This document shows, piece after piece, positions 24,477-35,312 of a stretch of 64,000 nt of DNA. How positions within the stretch are numbered: position 1 is the first letter of the stretch; each line of letters starts with the position of its first letter. The position numbers and the translations under genes were made by a program. Source of the stretch: Bdellovibrionota bacterium FG-1. GTDB lineage: Bacteria; Bdellovibrionota; UBA1018. The DNA is taken from assembly GCA_051382295.1 (NCBI GenBank), contig JBBCAW010000012.1, positions 64,001-128,000 on the forward strand. Direction: 5' to 3'. The notes beneath the pieces were generated by a model, which was not told the DNA's origin, made no database searches, and saw nothing but the letters and a program-made list of their open reading frames with translations.

Positions 24477-25286
24477 ATGGGTGAGCAAAGTGTTTTTTCT
24501 TTTTCAGACTATAAGCAGTTTCTTTGTCATTATGTGGATGTTCACAAAAAAGAGCGGGGCAGTATCCGGCGGATGGCTGAAGCGGCGGGTTGTCAGCGAT
24601 CCTACATGTCCCAAGTTTTAGGCACTCATGTGCATTTAACACGGGAGCAGGCGTGGGGTCTGTGTTCTTTGTTTGGTTTTAAGGATCTTGAGTCGCAATA
24701 TTTTATGGTGTTGATCGATCTCGCGCGCGCGGGAAGCAAAAAATATCGGGAAAATTTGGAGTCGCAGCGAAAAATGTTAAAACAAAGGTCCGAGGATCTT
24801 TCGGAACGCACCACGCGTAAGCGGATCGAGTCTGAGGATTTTGCGATGGAGTATTATTCGGCGTGGTATTGGAGCGCGATCCATATTTTAGTTTCTATTC
24901 CGGGCTTTCAGACTGTGAAGTCAATTGCGGCAAAGTTGTTTCTTGATGAAAAAACAGTCGAAAACAGCCTTAAACGATTGGCTGTGATGAAATTGGTCAC
25001 TCAAGAAAAAGATCGATGGTGTTTCAGGCAAGAAAGTATTCATGTGCCAAAGGATTCGCCTTATGTGGTCTTTCATCATCGGAATTGGCGAGATCGGTCG
25101 GTTTTATCTTCACAGGCCTCGGATCACGAGGGGATTCATTACACGATGGTTCAATCCGTGAGTCGAGACGTGTTGCCTCGAGTTCGTCAGCTTTTTCTGG
25201 ATGCTATAGAGCAAGCCAATCGTATTGCTGGCCCTTCTGCTCCTCAAGAGTTGGTCGCGATTAACTGTGACATTTTTTCAGTATGA
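24477..25286 (+). CDS. TIGR02147/DUF4423-like HTH protein
   Basis: DY--FL, SY-SQVL-----LT-EQA, YYS-WY-SAIH, H-NWR pattern typical of this Bdellovibrio-expanded family. Confidence 0.75.
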   Translation: MGEQSVFSFSDYKQFLCHYVDVHKKERGSIRRMAEAAGCQRSYMSQVLGTHVHLTREQAWGLCSLFGFKDLESQYFMVLIDLARAGSKKYRENLESQRKMLKQRSEDLSERTTRKRIESEDFAMEYYSAWYWSAIHILVSIPGFQTVKSIAAKLFLDEKTVENSLKRLAVMKLVTQEKDRWCFRQESIHVPKDSPYVVFHHRNWRDRSVLSSQASDHEGIHYTMVQSVSRDVLPRVRQLFLDAIEQANRIAGPSAPQELVAINCDIFSV

Positions 25287-26070: not shown

Positions 26071-26264
26071 AAATCCAATGATACAGGCAAGCCTGATAAC
26101 TTTGTCAACCCACCGCTCATAGTGCACCAAGTCGCACAGCCTTGTTCGTTGCTTGCCCCACGTAAAAATTCCTGCTCTTGCCTTTTTGAGTTCCCTTGCT
26201 AGAGTCGGGTGCTTCACAACTCGATCATCCACGGCTACGACGACTCTGGGAGAATTTAGAGACG

Positions 26265-29200
26265 ATGCGCATTAAAAGACTCGAAATTCAAGGCTTTAAG
26301 TCCTTTAAAGACAAGACTTTGATCCATTTTGATCATGGCATTACAGGGATCGTGGGGCCGAACGGCTGCGGTAAATCCAACGTCGTTGACGCCTTCTTTT
26401 GGGTCATGGGCGAGCAGTCTTATAAGCATATGCGCGGCAGCTCGAGCGACGATTTGATCTTTAACGGTAGCTCCAAATATAACCCGCTCGGTATGGCCGA
26501 AGCGACGCTCGTGCTTGAAACGGACGCAGCGGATACCGAAAGCGCACCCGCAGGCGCCAGCGCTGCCGATATTCCGGTTCATCTGCGTTCAAAAGAGATC
26601 TCTGTGACTCGCCGCCTCTATCGCGGGGGCGAGGGCGAATATTTTATTAACGGTGTCCCGGCGCGTCTTAAAGACATCCACGACCTGTTCATGGATACCG
26701 GCGTGGGCGCCAAAGGTTATTCCGTCATCGAACAAGGCCAAATCGGCAAGATTGTGCAAGCCAAGCCTGAGGAACGCCGTCTTTTGATTGAGGAAGCGGC
26801 CGGAATCGCCAAGTACAAAGCACGCAAAAAAGAATCTCTGCGCAAAATGGAAGCCACCCAGGGCAATCTTTCGCGCCTCACGGATGTCATCCAAGAAATC
26901 GAGCGCAGTTTAGGTTCTTTGGATCGGCAGGCTCAAAAGGCCCGCCAGTACAAAAAGTATAAAGAGGAGTTGCTCGATAAGGAAATGACCTGGGGTCGTC
27001 GTAAAAACACGGTTTTACGGCAAAAACTCGAGATGCTCGCCAAACAAAAAGAGCAGCTGGAGCAAGAGTTAGTGGGTCTTCGAGCTGAACTTCAAACTGC
27101 TGAAAACACCATCGAAACCGATCGGGTGGATCAAGTCACTGATACCAAGGCCGCTGAAGAACTCCAAGCCCAGATCAATCACTGTTCGAGTGAACTGGCG
27201 CACGAGCGCAGTGCTTTGGAGCTTTCTCGGCAACGGCAAAGTGATCTGCATCAACAACTCAGCGCACTCGATCACGAAAAGTCCGAGCTTAAAAACTCCA
27301 TCGAAGAGGAGCGTCTCAAGCTCGAAAACCGAGAAATCGAAGCCTCCGAATCAAACGACCTCTACCAAGAGGCTTCTGTTCAAGCTCAATCGGCCGACCA
27401 AAAAGCTCGTCAGGCACGTAATGAGGCTGACGGACTTCGGCGTGACCTCGAAAATCGCAAGCGCGAGCTCATGAAGGGAATTTCGCAGGCTTCGGACCTC
27501 ACTTCACGTGCCGCTTCCTTGGCTTCTCGTATTGAATCAGCCCAGGCTCAGGCCGAACGTCTGAAAGCTCAAGTCAGTGAGCAACACGAAAAATTAGCCG
27601 TCACTCGCGAAGAAACTCAGCGGGCTTCTGAAAACGCCGAGTCGGTCAAAATGAAGCGAGAAGAGCTGCAAGTCGAAAAAAGGGCCCAAGCGGATCGTGT
27701 TCAAGGATCTGATCAAAACACGAGAAAACTCGATCGCGAACGTGACGACAGTCATCGCAAACTGACTCAGCTTAAGTCTAAATTGCAATCGCTCGAAGAG
27801 CTTGCTGCCGCCTATGAAGGACTGGGTGATGGCCCTAAGGCCGCCCTCGAATGGGCACGCGATAATGGCCAGGCCGATCAGCTCTTGGCGCTGACCGACG
27901 CTTTGGATGTCACCGGAGAGTTCGAAACCGCACTCGGTGGCCTTCTCGAAAAACGGCTCGAAAATCTCATTGCCCGCGATACCAACGCTGCGCTGGGCGC
28001 GATTCAACATGTCGCTCATGCTAAGCAAGGCCGAATTGCCATTCAAGTGGCTTCGGGGCTTGAGGGGCGTCAAGCTGGCGCTTGGGATGCTGTTCGGGAT
28101 GCCCTCACTCAATCTGGATTTGAGGTTCTGGGTCAGCTCACTGATCAGGTGACGATTAACGCCAAACTCGATTCAAAGGTTCAGGCCATCGCCAGTGGTT
28201 TGATTGCTCACGTGGCTGTGGTCCGATCATTCGAACCCATGGCGCGGTTTATTTCGGGGTCTGCGGGTGGAACTGCAATGGAGCAGTTGGCCGGTTGGTC
28301 CGTTGTCAGCCAAGAGGGTGATGCCCTGGATTATGACGGCACTCTTCGCGGCGGTAGCACCGAGTCCGATGGGGCCGCAACCGTTCTCAAACGCAAGCGA
28401 GCCATCACGGATTTGCAGGCCCAGGTGGAACAAGCGGAATTAGCGCATCAGTCCGTTGAAAACGCAGCCATGACCGCTAAAGTCGAACTGGAAGAAGCGC
28501 GAACTCGGCTTCAAACCGTTCAGACCGAACTTCAACAGGCTGAAATTCAAGGCGCTGCCTTTGAACGAGATGTTCATCAAATGAGTCGGGCCTTGCGCGA
28601 GGCGGAGAATCACGCAGAGCGGTTACAAAGCGATCTTTTGCAGATGGAAGAACAGGGGCAATCGGCCCGTATCGAACGCGAAAATATTGAAGATGAACTA
28701 GCCGCGATCGTTTCTTCGCGCTCGGATTTGGAGGCCCAGATTTCGGCCGGAGATGACGAAATGGCGCTTCGGGACACCGAAGTCCGCGCGCAAGAGGTCG
28801 AAGCGCAAGCGCTTAAAATGAACGAGGTCACGCTTCGGGAGCGAGCCCAAAGTTTGAAGCGCGAGCTTGAAACGGGGCGCACGCTCATTGCGGATCGCGC
28901 ACGACGCTTGGCGGAAATTGACCGCACCCTGGACCGCGCTACCCGCGAACGAGAGCAGCATACCGGTGGTGAGGGCGGGATTGAAGAAAAGATCGAAGAG
29001 CTGACGATTCAATTATCAACGGCACGTGAGCAGCTTTCTGAGGTGAAGGATCGGCTTGAAAAGTCCGGTGCCGAGCTCAATCGCACTTTGGAGCGCATCA
29101 AGCAGTTCCATAAAACCGGTGACCACAAAACGTCTGAAAGTAATCAGGTCGGCCTCGAAATCGAACGTATTTCTGGGGATTTACAACATCTTGTGCAAAA

Positions 29201-29960
29201 TCTGGAAGAAAAATACGGTCCAGGTTGTCTTGAGCTTCCGGTGACCTCTCCGATTCAGGAAGAAATGACCGATCCTGTCGTCACGCACGAAATGACGGCG
29301 GAGGAGGAACAAGTTTTGGGCGAGGAAGTCGAACGTCTTCGCGAACGCATTCGGCGTCTGGGCGAAGTGAACGTGGGAGCCATCGAAGAATTCGAAAATA
29401 CGAAAAAGCGCTTTGATCATCTTGAAAGTGAAAAGCTCGATTTGGAGCGTTCTCTGGAAAATCTTCAGGATGCCATTGAGCATATCAACAAGACTTCCGA
29501 AGAGCGTTTTGTGCGAGCCTTTGAGGCCATCAAAGATCGGTTTGAGCGTCTCTTCCCTATCGTTTTTGGGGGAGGCAAGGCCGAACTTACGTTGGTTTAT
29601 CCGGAAGGCTCCAAAGATGTGTTAGAGGCCGGTGTCGACATTTTGGCCCAACCGCCGGGCAAAAAGGTCGTCAATATGACGTTGCTCTCCGGGGGTGAAA
29701 AGGCCCTCACCGCAGTCGCCTTTATTTTCGCGATCTTCATGGTCAAACCTTCTCCGTTTTGTTTATTGGATGAGGTTGACGCCCCGTTGGATGATGCGAA
29801 TATTGGAAAGTTTAATGCACTTTTGCGCGAGATGTCGGCGAAGAGCCAGTTCATTGTGATCACGCATAATAAAAAAACCATGGAGCTCAATGACACTCTG
29901 TACGGGGTAACGATGGAAGAGCCTGGTGTTTCCAAAATGATTTCGATTGAACTTCAATGA
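26265..29960 (+). CDS. smc: Chromosome segregation protein SMC
   Basis: GFKSF, GPNGCGKSN, coiled coils plus hinge, LSGGE, LLDEVDAPLD, ITHNK. Confidence 0.97.
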   Translation: MRIKRLEIQGFKSFKDKTLIHFDHGITGIVGPNGCGKSNVVDAFFWVMGEQSYKHMRGSSSDDLIFNGSSKYNPLGMAEATLVLETDAADTESAPAGASAADIPVHLRSKEISVTRRLYRGGEGEYFINGVPARLKDIHDLFMDTGVGAKGYSVIEQGQIGKIVQAKPEERRLLIEEAAGIAKYKARKKESLRKMEATQGNLSRLTDVIQEIERSLGSLDRQAQKARQYKKYKEELLDKEMTWGRRKNTVLRQKLEMLAKQKEQLEQELVGLRAELQTAENTIETDRVDQVTDTKAAEELQAQINHCSSELAHERSALELSRQRQSDLHQQLSALDHEKSELKNSIEEERLKLENREIEASESNDLYQEASVQAQSADQKARQARNEADGLRRDLENRKRELMKGISQASDLTSRAASLASRIESAQAQAERLKAQVSEQHEKLAVTREETQRASENAESVKMKREELQVEKRAQADRVQGSDQNTRKLDRERDDSHRKLTQLKSKLQSLEELAAAYEGLGDGPKAALEWARDNGQADQLLALTDALDVTGEFETALGGLLEKRLENLIARDTNAALGAIQHVAHAKQGRIAIQVASGLEGRQAGAWDAVRDALTQSGFEVLGQLTDQVTINAKLDSKVQAIASGLIAHVAVVRSFEPMARFISGSAGGTAMEQLAGWSVVSQEGDALDYDGTLRGGSTESDGAATVLKRKRAITDLQAQVEQAELAHQSVENAAMTAKVELEEARTRLQTVQTELQQAEIQGAAFERDVHQMSRALREAENHAERLQSDLLQMEEQGQSARIERENIEDELAAIVSSRSDLEAQISAGDDEMALRDTEVRAQEVEAQALKMNEVTLRERAQSLKRELETGRTLIADRARRLAEIDRTLDRATREREQHTGGEGGIEEKIEELTIQLSTAREQLSEVKDRLEKSGAELNRTLERIKQFHKTGDHKTSESNQVGLEIERISGDLQHLVQNLEEKYGPGCLELPVTSPIQEEMTDPVVTHEMTAEEEQVLGEEVERLRERIRRLGEVNVGAIEEFENTKKRFDHLESEKLDLERSLENLQDAIEHINKTSEERFVRAFEAIKDRFERLFPIVFGGGKAELTLVYPEGSKDVLEAGVDILAQPPGKKVVNMTLLSGGEKALTAVAFIFAIFMVKPSPFCLLDEVDAPLDDANIGKFNALLREMSAKSQFIVITHNKKTMELNDTLYGVTMEEPGVSKMISIELQ

Positions 29961-30619
29961 AAAAAATTCAGCTGTATTCATTAGGTCTGCTATTGGCTTT
30001 GAGTGGGATGGCTCAAGGGCAAGTCGTAAAAGCTCAACCCAAGCACTTGCCTGCCTTGCTCGAAGAAGTGGAGGCTAAGTATACCAAGGCCGCCACGCTA
30101 CAGGCTGATTTTACGCAGGTCATCGAGGTAGCCGCTCTTAAGTCTAAAAAGACCACCACGGGTGTGATCATGGTTAAAAGGCCGGACAAGCTGAGATGGG
30201 AAACGCTGCACCCCGAAATGAATCTCCTCGTGAGTGATGGCCACAAATTTTGGTTTTATACGCCACCGTTTGATGAAGGCGAACACGGGCAGGTCATTGA
30301 GAAAAAGACCGATGAGATTAACTCCAAGCTGGCGAAAGCCTTACTTTCGGGGCGATTTTCGGTAGCTAGGGATATGAAGATTCGCCAAAAAAATTCTTCG
30401 CGGTTTATTCTTACTCCCCGGCGCGGCACCGCAGGGACCGTCGAGCATGCTGAAATTGAAGTCAGCCCTGGAAAAAAACTCATTCAAAAGGTGATTTTGG
30501 TTCATGAAGGTGGAAATCGCGCGGAAATTTCGCTCTCAAAAATCGAGCTTGGCAAATCGATTGGAGATGAAGCCTTTGTTTTTGTGGCCCCCCCTCATAC
30601 TGACAAGGTGACGCAATAA
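29957..30619 (+). CDS. lolA: Outer membrane lipoprotein carrier protein
   Basis: Signal peptide, ADF-Q, KRP-K-RWE, VSDG---WFY-P, F-F--P. Confidence 0.85.
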   Translation: MKKIQLYSLGLLLALSGMAQGQVVKAQPKHLPALLEEVEAKYTKAATLQADFTQVIEVAALKSKKTTTGVIMVKRPDKLRWETLHPEMNLLVSDGHKFWFYTPPFDEGEHGQVIEKKTDEINSKLAKALLSGRFSVARDMKIRQKNSSRFILTPRRGTAGTVEHAEIEVSPGKKLIQKVILVHEGGNRAEISLSKIELGKSIGDEAFVFVAPPHTDKVTQ

Positions 30620-30656
30620 AAAAAAGCCCCCGAGTGTCGATCAAACCCTCGGGGGC
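30618..30656 (-). terminator. Intrinsic terminator (U-tract on minus strand; hairpin also follows lolA)
   Basis: gcccccgag-N13-ctcgggggc stem followed by a U8 tract on the minus strand. Confidence 0.85.
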
Positions 30657-31015
30657 GATACTACGCCGGTCGTGATAAAACCACCGGCTCTATTTGGGAC
30701 GACACGTTAAAGTGCCGTTATATTTTGCCCGGTCGGAGATTTCGGGGCACTTTATGAACCCCTGCGGGCACGCCTCACGGCGACCTGACATCTCGTAATA
30801 AACCCGGGACAGAGTAGATTTTAATTTTTTTACTGCTTTTTTCCGACGCAGTCTTAAGTGGCCACTTAAGATTCGGCGGCTCATGAGCTCCGCAGACGCC
30901 TGAGGGCGGTTTGGCTCACGCTTTCACTGGCGTGGTGGACCGATATCATGAAACTCAATCAAAGAGATGTAAACGTACGACTTTCTTAGCATTCCTAGTT
31001 GCCCTCCGTTTCATA
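30618..31015 (-). ncRNA. Putative ~400-nt structured ncRNA, family not recognised
   Basis: Upstream sigma70-like promoter, at least six stems including a GNRA-capped hairpin, a strong terminator and no convincing long ORF. Confidence 0.5.
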
Positions 31016-31021
31016 ATTAAT

Positions 31022-31050
31022 AGACTATATTGGTATGGTATTAATTGCAA
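31022..31050 (-). promoter_or_regulatory. Sigma70-like promoter
   Basis: TTGCAA-N17-TAGTCT on the minus strand, in AT-rich context. Confidence 0.55.
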
Positions 31051-31137
31051 TAGACAAAGTTTATGCAATTTAACTTTTTTTAAAGTCGACTAACAACAGA
31101 GAGTTAAAAGGGTAAGTGTCGAATATTTAAGCTTTCT

Positions 31138-33921
31138 TCACCGTTTCTTGGCTTTTTTTTCGACCTTTTTAGGGGCGGGTTTTGCCTTTTTTTGTGCGGC
31201 TCGTGGGTTCCGAAGCGCTGCCTGGGCGGCTGCCAAAAGGGCGATGGGCACTCGATAGGGCGAACAACTCACGTAATCCAGTCCGGCGCGGTGGCAAAAC
31301 TCCACAGATTGGGGATCGCCACCGTGTTCACCACAAATTCCTACCTTCAGATCAGGACGGGTTGCCCGACCCTCTTTGATGGAAAACGCCATCAGTCGGC
31401 CTACGCCTATTTGGTCGAGCGAGGCAAAAGGGTCGCGATCATAAATTTTTGCGTCGATATAATCCTTTAAAAAGATGCCCGAATCATCCCGCGATAAACC
31501 GTACGTGGTTTGTGTGAGGTCATTGGTGCCGAAGCTGAAAAAGTCGGCGTATTTTGCGATTTCAGCGGAGGTCAGGGCCGCTCGCGGGAGTTCAATCATT
31601 GTGCCGATTTTATAATCGACGTTTCCTTTGAGACCACTGGCCTTGTAGTATTTGACGATCGTGTCCGCTTCGTCGCGACAGTAGTCTCCGACAAACTTCA
31701 GTTCACGCCAATCGCCAATCAGAGGGATCATGATCTCAGGCACGATCTTAAACCCCTCTTCCTTCATGAGCTCACAGGCCGCATCCATGATGGCATGGAT
31801 CTGGGTGCGATAGATTTCGGGATAACTGACGCCCAGCCGGCAGCCACGATGACCGAGCATGGGATTGAACTCATGCAAGCTTTCAGCTTTTCGTTTAATT
31901 CGATCAAAGGATACTCCGATTTTAGCTGCGAGTTCCTGAAGGTCAGAATCTTTTTGTGGAATGAACTCATGAAGGGGCGGATCCAAAAGTCGAATCGTTA
32001 CGGGAAGTCCCTTCATTTCACGGAAAATTTCCTTAAAATCCGCTTTTTGCATCGGAAGGATCTTGTCGAGCGCTTTGCGCCGTCCGGCTTCGTTATCAGC
32101 CAGAATCATCTCCCGAACCGCATCGATTCGCTGAGTATCAAAGAACATATGTTCTGTGCGACAGAGGCCAATTCCTTCAGCGCCAAACTCACGGGCAACT
32201 TTAGCGTCATTCGGAGTGTCTGCGTTGGTGCGGACGCCGATCTGACGAAATTGGTTGACCCACGTCATAAGTTCCTGAAAATCTTTGTTGACGGTGGGGA
32301 CAATCGTATCGACTTGGCCCTTGATCACTTCGCCCGTGGAGCCGTCCAAGGTAATAAAGTCACCTTCTTTTAAGGTGAGTTTACCGACCTGAAGTTCTTT
32401 GCGGTCGTAGCTGATCTTGAGGGTTGAACAGCCCGAAACACAGCATTTGCCCATTCCTCGCGCAACTACAGCCGCGTGCGAAGTCATGCCGCCTCGAGCG
32501 GTCAAGATCCCTTCCGCCGCGGACATCCCGTGAATGTCTTCAGGGGATGTCTCAAGCCGCACCAAAATGACTTTTTTTCCGCGGTTTTGGAACCATTCTT
32601 CGGCGGTATCGGGATCAAAAACAATTTGGCCCGTAGCCGCGCCAGGCGAAGCCGGAAGGCCCTTGGCAATGACATCCTTGTAAGCGTTGGGATCGAGTGT
32701 GGGGTGAAGTAACTGATCGAGCTGTTCTGGTTGAACGCGCATGGTTGCTTCTTGTTTGGTGATGAGCCTTTCGCGAACCATGTCCGCTGCGATCTTAAGC
32801 GAAGCCGCCGCCGTACGCTTGGCATTTCGAGTTTGGAGCATGTAGAGTTTGCCGCGTTCGATCGTAAACTCGATGTCTTGCATGTCGCGATAGTGTTTCT
32901 CGAGTTTTTGATAGACCTTGACGAGTTGACCATAGGCCTTGGGCATGACGTGCTCAAGCGTGGGGAGCTTGTCGGCGTTCGCCTGCCGTGATTCTTCGTT
33001 GATCGGTTGCGGAGTGCGAATACCAGCCACGACGTCTTCGCCTTGGGCATTGATCAAAAATTCCCCAAAGAATTTTTTGTCGCCGGTCGATGGATCGCGA
33101 GTGAACGCGACTCCGGTGGCGCAATCATCCCCCATATTGCCGAAAACCATGGATTGGATATTGACGGCCGTGCCCCAGTTCTCCGGGATTTCGTTCAGTT
33201 TGCGATAGGTGATGGCGCGCGGGCTCATCCACGAACCAAATACCGCGCCCACGGCACCCCAGAGCTGCTCTAACGGATCTTCTGGAAACTTCTTACCGGC
33301 GAGTCGCACGAAATGCTTAAATCGGGCGACCAGCTCCTTGAGATCTTCAGCGCTCAGTTCCGTATCGAGTTCCACATTACGCTCATGTTTGAGCTCTTCG
33401 AGCGCGGATTCGAATTGGTTAGAATGGATATCGAGCACCACATCGGAGTACATGGTGATAAAGCGACGATAGCTGTCGTAGGCAAAGCGGGGGTCTTTGG
33501 ATTCGACAATCAGGCCTTCAATGGTTTCGTCGTTGAGACCCAGATTGAGGATCGTGTCCATCATGCCAGGCATTGAAGCACGCGCTCCGGAACGCACCGA
33601 AACCAGGAGCGGATTTGTTTTCGATCCAAATTTACGCCCCATGATCTTTTCAACTTTGACCAAGGCGGTCCGAACTTGTGCGTCGAGGGCCTTAGGGTAA
33701 GTCCTATTATTGGCGTAAAAATGAGAGCAGATGTCGGTCGTTAAGGTAAACCCCGGAGGAACCGGCAGCTTTAACTGAGTCATGGCATGCAAATTCGCGC
33801 CTTTGCCACCCAAGAGATTTTTCATTCCTTCGTGACCGTCGGCCTTGCCGGCGCCAAAGGAATAAACTAAGCGAGTGGGCAATGCTTTCGCCGATTTTTT
33901 GGCTGGTTTACGCATTGCCAT
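31138..33921 (-). CDS. ppdK: Pyruvate, phosphate dikinase
   Basis: [51 protein letters not shown]. Start set at MAMRK to limit overlap with glyQS. Confidence 0.97.
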
Positions 33922-35266
33922 TGGGCCAGTTTTCGATTTTGTCTTCGAGGTAGGAGCTGAGGCTTTCAGCACTGACCCTTTCTTGGGCCATGCTGTCGCG
34001 GTGGCGGACCGTGACCGTGTGGTTGGAGAGTGTGTCATAATCGATCGTGACTCCAAAGGGTGTACCGATTTCGTCTTGCCGGCGATACCTCTTGCCGATC
34101 GATCCTGCGTCATCGGTGGTGACGCGGAATCGTTTTTTGAGTTGCGTGAGAATTTTATCCGAATACTCCATGAGTTCGGGCTTTTTCATGAGGGGATATA
34201 TTGCGGCTTTGTAAGGCGCGAGTTTGGGATGAAACTGCAGCCAAGCGCGTTCTCCATCAAAACGATAGGCATCAACCAGTGAAACCAAAACAAAACGATC
34301 GCAGCCTACCGAAGTTTCAACAATAAAAGGCAGGAAGCGTTCTTTGGATTGTTCGTCGAAATATTCCAGCTTTTTGCCGCTAAATTTTTGATGTTGGGTC
34401 AAGTCGAAGTCCGAACGGTTATGAATCCCCTCAAGTTCTTGCCACCCAAATGGAAATTCATACTCAATATCGAAGGCCGCCTTGGCATAATGGGCGAGCT
34501 CCCCCGGGCCATGTTCGTGAAAGCGCAGCTTGTTTTTACGAATGCCCAAGTCGAAATGCCATTGAATGCGGGCTTGTTTCCATTTTTCAAACCACTCCAT
34601 GTCGGTGCTGGGTTTGACAAAAAACTGCATCTCCATCTGCTCGAATTCCCGGGTGCGGAAAATAAAGTTTCCAGGCGTAATTTCGTTACGGAAGGCTTTG
34701 CCAATCTGGGCGATGCCAAAGGGAAGTTTTTGCCGCGCAGACTGCTGGACATTCAAAAAATTAACGTAAATACCTTGCGCGGTTTCTGGACGAAGAAAAA
34801 CCACTGAGGCCGCATCTTCCAGCGGACCCATGAAGGTTTTAAACATCAAATTGAAATTGCGGGGTTCTGTCAGTTCGCAATCCGACGTTTCCCCGGGATG
34901 TTTACTGGGTTTTTGGCCACAAGCGGCCATATCCAGTTTGTCAGCGCGAAAGCGGCCTTTACATTTTTTGCAATCGACCATCGGATCTGAAAAGCCAGCA
35001 ATGTGACCCGAGGCTTCCCACACTTTGGGGTGCATGAGAATCGCGGCATCCAGGCCTTCGATGTCTTCACGATCGGTCATCCACCGCCACCAAGCCTCTT
35101 TGACATTGCGCTTCAGTTCGATGCCCAGCGGGCCGTAATCCCAGCAGGCATTGATACCGCCGTATATTTCACTCGAAGGAAATACGAATCCGCGTCGTTT
35201 ACAAAGGGAGACGAGTTCGGCCATGTCTTTGAGGTCTTGAGCCGGTGGGGTGATAGTTTCACTCAT
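33908..35266 (-). CDS. glyQS: Glycine--tRNA ligase (alpha2 type)
   Basis: [57 protein letters not shown]. Confidence 0.96.
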
Positions 35267-35312
35267 GATCTCTTCGGGATAGCAGAGCCCCAACGGACAG
35301 GCAATGATCAAG

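Follow-up and report, generated by a model that had tools for sequence, protein, structure and literature searches.

The genetic context of a candidate structured RNA was examined in Bdellovibrionota bacterium FG-1, within a 64,000 nt stretch of its genome (assembly GCA_051382295.1; contig JBBCAW010000012.1, positions 64,001 to 128,000), here called the window. The candidate unit, on the minus strand, was found between lolA (coordinates 29957–30619, convergent) and ppdK (31138–34113, minus strand), and smc stands before lolA. The order of its parts is promoter, GGAGG, 22-codon ORF, P1, P2, A-rich linker, variable 3' domain and terminator, at the following positions of the window:

31022–31050, minus strand: sigma-70-like promoter, TTGCAA (-35, 31045–31050), 17 nt, TAGTCT (-10, 31022–31027)
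31003–31007, minus strand: Shine-Dalgarno (SD) sequence GGAGG, conserved in the family
30924–30992, minus strand: 22-codon ORF with the end HDIGPPRQ-stop, conserved as protein
30930–30941, minus strand: Gly-Pro-Pro-Arg codons, predicted pause site; the Gly codon begins 21 nt before P1
30882–30920, minus strand: hairpin P1/P1b, 30914–30920 with 30882–30888 and 30907–30909 with 30890–30892
30893–30902, minus strand: loop L1, self-complementary; hexamer at 30895–30900, with one G-U per half in the window copy
30843–30879, minus strand: hairpin P2, inner arms 30865–30871 and 30852–30858
30859–30864, minus strand: loop L2, palindromic core GGCC at 30860–30863
30818–30842, minus strand: A-rich single-stranded linker; similar tract in relatives
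30665–30811, minus strand: variable 3' domain, three-sequence consensus fold
30618–30656, minus strand: intrinsic terminator, hairpin 30626–30656 and U8 30618–30625; overlaps the lolA stop codon

Transcription is predicted to start near 31015. A first-pass annotation had described the region as a stand-alone structured transcript of ~400 nt with its own promoter and terminator, distinct from a riboswitch leader, and such a unit, as a predicted transcript, is supported. The flanking genes lolA and ppdK were borne out, and every motif that it listed was found where it had been placed, including the promoter boxes, a 20-bp palindrome (30852–30871), a GNRA hairpin (30771–30782), gccggt/accggc (30665–30688), the terminator with its U8 and two tiny ORFs. 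It had also seen no hallmark of tmRNA or RNase P; neither of these nor 6S RNA was detected in the window using Rfam and ARAGORN, though each matches over the cut-off elsewhere in the genome, and ARAGORN found no tRNA in the window. No Rfam family reached the gathering score in the window (best local match E 0.059) or in 12 of 12 further loci. Folded singly, 30618–31016 is of modest stability (z -1.92), and a simple consensus scan reported neither the promoter nor the terminator of the unit. Support for the unit comes from conservation and not from single-sequence folding or a consensus scan. A 64-aa ORF (30690–30884) that by chance continues the frame in the window was set aside, as it shows no conservation and belongs to no family.

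When 61 genomes were searched at the DNA level, 30871–30957 was matched by three short stretches, one of which was a second site in the same genome, on contig C41 (nhmmer E 2e-12). A covariance model (R1) built from the four initial sequences matched 101 places in 75 of the 116 genomes of the order (about two-thirds), with 1–4 copies per genome, and 46 of 67 genomes among the best assemblies of the order. Ninety-two of the 101 places were aligned and the other nine were held out for later use; the aligned copies, drawn from 69 related genomes, are not independent. A model of the hairpins alone (R3), with the coding part left out, gave matches in 77 of the 127 genomes of the class, at nearly the same places as the coding-inclusive model; none of the 11 genomes lying outside the order was among those matched.

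When the model was rebuilt from the 92 copies, 125 sampled genomes outside the order gave one weak match, which was rejected as it lacks such an ORF. Peptide-profile matches were obtained in seven genomes outside the order; two of the matches lie within long ORFs, and the six loci inspected, from five genomes, were rejected. A pattern search of named records gave 80 listed matches and 31 further ones. Among the 80 listed, 46 score at least 53 bits and are nearly all metagenome assemblies, with titles naming Oligoflexia, Bacteriovoracaceae, Bdellovibrionales, Bdellovibrionota and similar (40), 'Proteobacteria bacterium' (5) or 'Nitrosovibrio' (1). The remaining 34 score 31 bits or less, and the three inspected were without such an ORF. 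One viral match failed the covariance model. No homologue outside the order was confirmed in these searches.

The second site in this genome (C41:42210–42573, minus strand; loci L007 and L110) is a diverged copy of the whole unit, with a 23-aa ORF from 42520 and ~60% identity outside the loops. Its L1 hexamer, unusual in containing G-U, is the one seen in the window, and its L2 also has GGCC; as the window and C41 copies share both loops, the two RNAs could pair with each other. Tandem copies were observed 446 nt apart in genome G087 (L046:1055–1179 and 1501–1625) and ~4 kb apart in G110 (L042 and L053). The copy at L095 (G077:C98) is of the f10 type in sequence and context in a genome placed in family f1, a possible binning error.

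In the 92 copies, 98.9% and 98.1% of the cells of P1/P1b are paired, with double-sided changes in 8 of 10 pairs, and 93.5% and 91.5% of those of P2, with double-sided changes in 9 of 9. For both hairpins together, 95.8% of cells are paired and 17 of 19 pairs double-changed, a level reached by 0 of 500 shuffles and compared with 30–45% in slid controls. The alignment had been fitted to this structure, a bias in its favour. The covariation of P1 was seen again on 30 distinct further rows, some identical or near-identical to training loci. The first-pass annotation had drawn a different stem here, cacgc/gcgtg, which is present in the window but has all five pairs in only 23 of 92 copies, and its 3' arm belongs to P1. 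Insertions of ~30–70 nt are found within P1b, 5' of the L1 palindrome, in L073, L104 and L066, and the palindrome keeps its position relative to the 3' strand.

The main feature, absent from the first-pass annotation, is that the loops of both hairpins are palindromes and covary as palindromes. Two bases separate the L1 hexamer from the P1b 3' strand that follows it. The hexamer reads as a perfect palindrome in 65 of the 92 copies, with nine types (column shuffles 13.6, maximum 25), and is self-complementary by Watson-Crick or G-U pairing in 79 (shuffles 29.3). At offsets of 1–4 nt, at most four perfect palindromes were found. The imperfect hexamers are G-U-compatible on the strand of the unit in 14 copies and A-C in 3, which fits pairing as RNA. 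The L2 core is palindromic in 92 of 92 copies (GGCC in 75, GATC in 11, CGCG in 6; shuffles 63.8, maximum 73). The central adjacent bases of the loops change jointly (CG, TA, AT, GC). Since neighbouring bases of a chain are unable to pair with each other, this implies two copies of the RNA. The complement of L2 lies within L1 in only 1 of 92 copies, and the complement of L1 elsewhere in the unit in only 8 of 92.

A metagenome search in which the pattern fixed GPP and GGCC and left L1 free gave 25 matches, some of them duplicates, with L1 perfect in 19, G-U-compatible in 2, mismatched in 2 and unparsed in 2. Thirteen of the 92 L1 loops are not self-complementary hexamers; most of these exceptions (8 or 9 of 13) are odd-length palindromes, in two clades, that could fold as triloops. 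Exceptional L1 loops were also found in 5 of 15 held-out loci, and L2 is ambiguous in one copy beyond the alignment. The predicted energy of the L1 self-duplex is -14.7 kcal/mol, and that of two window cores joined as an extended duplex via the P2 palindrome is -73.3 versus 2 x -26.3 kcal/mol. Among paralogues with 55–75% identity, the L1 loops match in 15 of 16 pairs, compared with 34–48% between genomes, and among the most distant paralogues in 1 of 8; the total of 28 within-genome pairs are not independent.

An element of the form TTG..(16–18)..TA...T is present at promoter distance in 39 of 88 copies under a strict rule, with a mean of 3.9 in shuffles (maximum 7) and 2 of 258 control windows. 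Motifs that recur across the -35 box, namely GACACA(A)TT (in many cases preceded by a TGTC half), TGTCTAAA and GCGTCA, suggest a regulator, and three pattern scans of this genome revealed no clear regulon for them. The 31 nt upstream in the window (31051–31075 region; L002:1501–1531) are identical at 28 of 31 positions to a site in G016.

It is most improbable that the palindromes act as DNA, as protein sites or hairpins, or that the unit is only the 3' UTR of ppdK. A simple consensus scan found no terminator between ppdK and the promoter of the unit, and ppdK was upstream on the same strand in 7 of the 38 upstream ORFs of relatives scanned, two points in favour of this reading. However, 42 of 87 upstream ORFs are divergent, and the unit has its own conserved promoter and SD. 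Nine L1 and three L2 palindromes misfit one DNA-binding protein, and the G-U pairs are frequent on one strand of the unit, which also argues against a role as DNA.

The unit had previously been taken as non-coding, a description that is not supported, as the 22-codon ORF is kept as protein. An intact ORF with a start codon, 17–36 residues and GPP near its end was found in 87 of 92 copies, with the family consensus E-x-x-E-T-G-P-P-[R/K]. GGAGG precedes it in 75 of these 87, and GGAG or GAGG in 84. The second tiny ORF, of 19 aa, was not conserved (8 of 90 copies have an ATG so placed). Counting from P1, a Gly codon is at -21 in 88 of 92 copies, Pro at -18 and at -15 in 90 each, and Arg or Lys at -12 in 86. 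All four Gly codons are used (28, 24, 23 and 13 copies), indicating that the constraint is on the protein level. The stop codon shifts between -3 (64 copies), -6 (6), -9 (20) and later positions (2), and in 26 copies the spacing of GPP to P1 is kept where 3–6 spacer nt are non-coding and variable. The register to P1 counts for more than the position of the stop.

All 15 loci that had not been used for training were recovered by the hairpin-only model; GPP is at -21 in 12 of them, and in the other three the motif has decayed and the stop remains at -9. Over both sets, GPP is missing while the hairpins persist in 4 of the 92 aligned copies and 3 of these 15 loci, in most cases with the stop at -9. 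Both palindromic hairpins and a stop at -9 were observed with GPP gone (RFR, EDP, DPQ, RHR, EDQ) at L108, L109, L097, L283, L284 and L287.

The residue before GPP is Thr in 49 of the 92 copies, otherwise mainly Ala (10), Val (8), Ile (6, the residue in the window), His (6), Ser (4) or Arg (3). The Pro pair is encoded as CCY-CCR in 69 of 87 copies, compared with 524 of 2457 (21%) in the long ORFs of this genome. CCY-C is described as a slippery sequon avoided in E. coli in the accessible part of PMC8129111. No shifted or read-through product is conserved here, with 2–92 open codons in frame, 2–72 and 1–79 in the shifted frames and no shared peptide. Covariation was absent for pairing of the Pro codons with the SD. 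None of 64 peptides scanned matched Pfam or NCBIfam. With regard to type I toxins, the 87 peptides are by inspection charged and without a hydrophobic run, and a simple scan of the plus strand of the window region found no promoter-like site for an antisense antitoxin RNA.

Upstream of smc in two genomes, ORF-only units were found (L252 in G040 and L250 in G047), consisting of promoter, GGAGG, ORF and terminator, in which the model recognises no hairpin core. The ORF is of 34 aa ending ETGPPLH or of 17 aa ending GQPP. These two are among 10 model-negative genomes inspected at smc, and as they occupy the syntenic slot, the ORF and the hairpins can separate. SD-led short ORFs with ETGPP and without the hairpin core were also observed directly behind another gene at L297 (G064:C232) and L298 (G065:C108).

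The persistence of the ORF without hairpins in the two genomes with ORF-only units could mean that a released peptide acts in trans via its ETGPP[R/K] end, with the self-pairing hairpins limiting or stabilising its mRNA, for instance if dimers that form in a concentration-dependent way become a nuclease substrate. The strong SD (84 of 87), the conservation of residues before GPP (Glu at -36 in 50 of 92, Thr at -24 in 49 of 92) and the predicted pairing of two window cores through the P2 palindrome are consistent with this. However, the fixed register of GPP to P1 over non-coding spacers would be left unexplained, the peptide varies from 17 to 36 aa with a mean column identity of 28%, and the hairpins remain where GPP is lost. 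A trans-acting peptide is therefore considered rather unlikely.

The genes downstream were examined for a possible target. By a heuristic assignment, the downstream ORF is co-oriented at 63 of 88 loci and convergent at 25, including both copies in this genome. It encodes SMC on the same strand in at least 31 of 87 scanned, a lower bound as the ORF picker erred at some loci. Among the Pfam hits of the 87 downstream ORFs, ~29 of which had no hit, there was no sec or yidC gene, and no mobile-element genes were found among the neighbours scanned. The ancestral order may have been ppdK, RNA, smc, with smc-lolA facing the RNA in the window. In relatives, a promoter-like element lies between the terminator and smc, and it is kept before smc in the window (~26178–26205); as smc has its own promoter-like element, the RNA is not needed as an smc leader. 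This element (TTGCCT-N-TAGAGT) is overlapped by the annotated TTG start of smc (26196), and the actual start is probably the ATG near 26265. A TIGR02147-family protein is encoded near smc (24477–25286), and a dimeric (eukaryote-type) glycine-tRNA ligase upstream of ppdK (33908–35311, minus strand).

The frequency of co-oriented SMC genes and the location of both ORF-only units before smc would suit a leader-peptide attenuator, in which a stall at GPP would decide whether transcription passes the terminator into the following gene, ancestrally smc. However, a co-oriented gene behind a switchable terminator is lacking at the window copy, as at the other convergent loci, and the remaining downstream genes are diverse. 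The promoter-like element of smc is present in relatives and also here, where the RNA is not upstream. In addition, L2 shows no covariation with the terminator arms, and the palindromic loops would be unexplained. Attenuation is thus very unlikely.

The 3' part of the unit is less uniform. An A-rich tract was found in 62 of 92 copies (loose pattern, without a control) and a GNRA hairpin of at least 4 pairs in 56 of 92 (also without a control). The 3' domain varies widely and is nearly missing in some copies. Its fold in the window, the consensus of the three sequences with the closest 3' domains, has a stem 30804–30811/30726–30732 around the GNRA hairpin, followed by hairpins at 30700–30717 and 30665–30688. 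The long-range stem and the 30700–30717 hairpin replace aaagtgcc/ggcacttt of the first-pass annotation, which can be found in the sequence but is not the conserved pairing. A terminator-like hairpin was identified in 82 of 92 copies by our own heuristic, 202–511 nt from the ATG (median 311). The base of its stem is very often GGCCC/GGGCC in the family. A third kissing loop in the terminator was considered and found unconvincing: 40 of 74 copies have a palindromic 4-mer at the tip of the hairpin, versus 63 of 205 other terminators (shuffles 29.8, maximum 41).

Two soil metatranscriptome runs from one study contain contigs covering 30710–30896 and 30744–30897, which differ from the window at 4 of 187 and 5 of 154 positions. 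These contigs were assembled at depth 2 and show presence only, not strand, ends or level. Both stop in the middle of L1 (30896–30897), which may be an assembly effect or a strain difference. The flanking genes have no close contigs in these libraries, which proves nothing either way.

Coverage of the structured part by both contigs, conservation of the RNA core far better than that of the peptide, recurrence of the A-rich linker and GNRA hairpin, and retention of the core at the 7 loci with a decayed GPP are what would be expected if the RNA multimer were itself the product, as a scaffold or protein sponge similar to OLE or ROOL, and the ORF merely a ribosome landing pad, there to shield the 5' end or to set the timing of folding. 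However, GPP, R/K and CCY-CCR are kept in the large majority of copies, beyond the needs of a landing pad, and a scaffold with so variable a 3' domain, almost absent in some copies, would be unexpected. This explanation is quite unlikely.

The architecture of the unit, as established by comparison of its copies, is real and conserved. Its function can be proposed tentatively, at a little under even confidence, as a translation-gated self-assembly in which the ribosome would pause at Gly-Pro-Pro and the loops would join RNA copies into dimers or chains. A hairpin that starts 13–16 nt past the P site is approximately at the mRNA entrance of the ribosome. The unit would be transcribed and translated, and the ribosome would dwell at GPP-R/K; with Pro2 or Arg/Lys in the P site, P1 would begin 16 or 13 nt downstream, at the mRNA entrance. 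A ribosome paused there would leave P1 and L1 folded, and one running to a stop at -3 would melt the 5' strand of P1. Kissing of L1 with L1' and of L2 with L2' would link the copies, so that the pause would gate assembly and the assembly would carry paused ribosomes. As the two self-complementary loops are distinct, each RNA would have two valencies, enough for closed dimers or chains.

EF-P is encoded in this genome. XPPX motifs stall without EF-P and GPP in ileS gave a weaker stall than PPP, according to the available text of PMC13602936, and in the portion available of 10.1101/2023.09.02.556018 RGPP motifs caused ribosome arrest in vitro and most RAPP-like motifs in ordinary proteins gave no stall. 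Counting against the proposed mechanism are the loss of GPP with hairpins kept, the ORF-only units, the non-hexamer L1 loops, the predominance of Thr before GPP, and the presence of the hibernation factor HPF. It is unlikely that the RNA acts as a ribosome tether, where each ribosome would be held at the proline pause and copies linked via the two loops into dimers, rings or filaments. If this were so, ribosomes would be clustered or parked by RNA rather than protein, and the switch would be EF-P or prolyl-tRNA supply. A link to the ribosome lattice of B. bacteriovorus was rejected, as the ribosomes are randomly oriented according to the accessible part of 10.1101/2022.06.13.496000 and no homologue has been confirmed outside the order. 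A substitute for the hibernation factor was also rejected, as HPF is already encoded in 104 of the 116 genomes of the order and twice in this one.

The unit brings loops predicted to self-pair and a predicted pause motif together in one small gene with constant spacing, and it occurs at no fewer than 101 sites in an order whose members, relatives of Bdellovibrio, are mostly uncultured. To our knowledge, few natural oligomers consist of RNA alone, and for most of them the purpose is obscure; nearly all known arrest peptides regulate either an adjacent gene or the location of their own mRNA. In dual-function small RNAs such as SgrS/SgrT, SR1 and RNAIII, an ORF is combined with an RNA role of pairing with other mRNAs. 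The unit is similarly a small stand-alone RNA with an ORF and a likely RNA-level role, and here the covariation points to self-pairing. Six-base loop palindromes join two copies of one RNA in retroviral dimer-initiation hairpins and in designed kissing-loop RNAs. Unlike these, the unit is a chromosomal bacterial gene with two different loops and with no mobile-element genes among the neighbours scanned.

The closest parallels for the loops are OLE, ROOL, GOLLD and ARRPOF, which in the accessible parts of PMC12286853 and PMC12990946 are also stand-alone structured RNAs with symmetric loops covarying at adjacent bases. A GGCC-to-GAUC switch in OLE L9.3 is reported in the available text of PMC12286853 to support an intermolecular bridge seen by cryo-EM; L2 makes the same switch, with oligomers seen there and only duplex energies computed here. 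However, no Rfam match to these families was obtained, the core is ~80 nt compared with 255–833 nt in what those sources describe, and the unit has a predicted translated ORF in fixed register with the core.

The ORF resembles SecM, ApdA/ApdP, the RQH family with RGPP, and YwcI, as these are presented in the accessible part of 10.1101/2023.09.02.556018, in its C-terminal G-P-P, short length and variable N-terminus. It differs from the RAPP-like (RQH) peptides described there in having mostly Thr and not Arg, Gln or His before GPP, which departs from the (R/Q/H)-(A/G)-P-P motif, and in being followed by a terminator without sec or yidC downstream, the stalling here being a prediction. The loops therefore resemble those of self-assembling RNAs and the ORF an arrest peptide, and the unit belongs to neither group, nor to merRNA.

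No earlier description of such a unit was found in a literature search that left subscription journals and the supplementary motif tables of large RNA-discovery papers outside its scope, and the accessible parts of PMC12990946, PMC12856214 and 10.64898/2026.07.01.735769 do not mention one. The architecture is apparently undescribed, and supplementary tables could hold an unnamed version. Novelty is claimed for the architecture and not for a function. Dimerisation, pausing and their coupling can be tested directly without culturing the host, since in vitro synthesis of the 80-nt core is feasible and nature supplies mutually exclusive variants of its loops.

The merRNA of Bdellovibrio bacteriovorus, named as a possible relative in the first-pass annotation, is likewise stand-alone, ~400 nt in length and, it appears, from the same phylum. 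However, it is defined by a c-di-GMP riboswitch in the available portion of PMC3627812, and this description sets the unit apart, as the window contains no c-di-GMP-I match; no homologue of the unit was confirmed in the 125 sampled genomes outside the order. A further mark of merRNA is its massive expression in the attack phase; for the unit, the RNA evidence consists of the two soil contigs. The only c-di-GMP-I match of this genome is on contig C60 (C60:1727–1821). There, a c-di-GMP-I-GGC aptamer is flanked by a terminator and by a promoter-like element resembling in type that of the window unit, over ~350 nt (L019:1334–1720; G000:C60:1560–1946). Judged by these features, the C60 unit may be the better merRNA-like candidate in this genome, or an ordinary riboswitch of the next gene.
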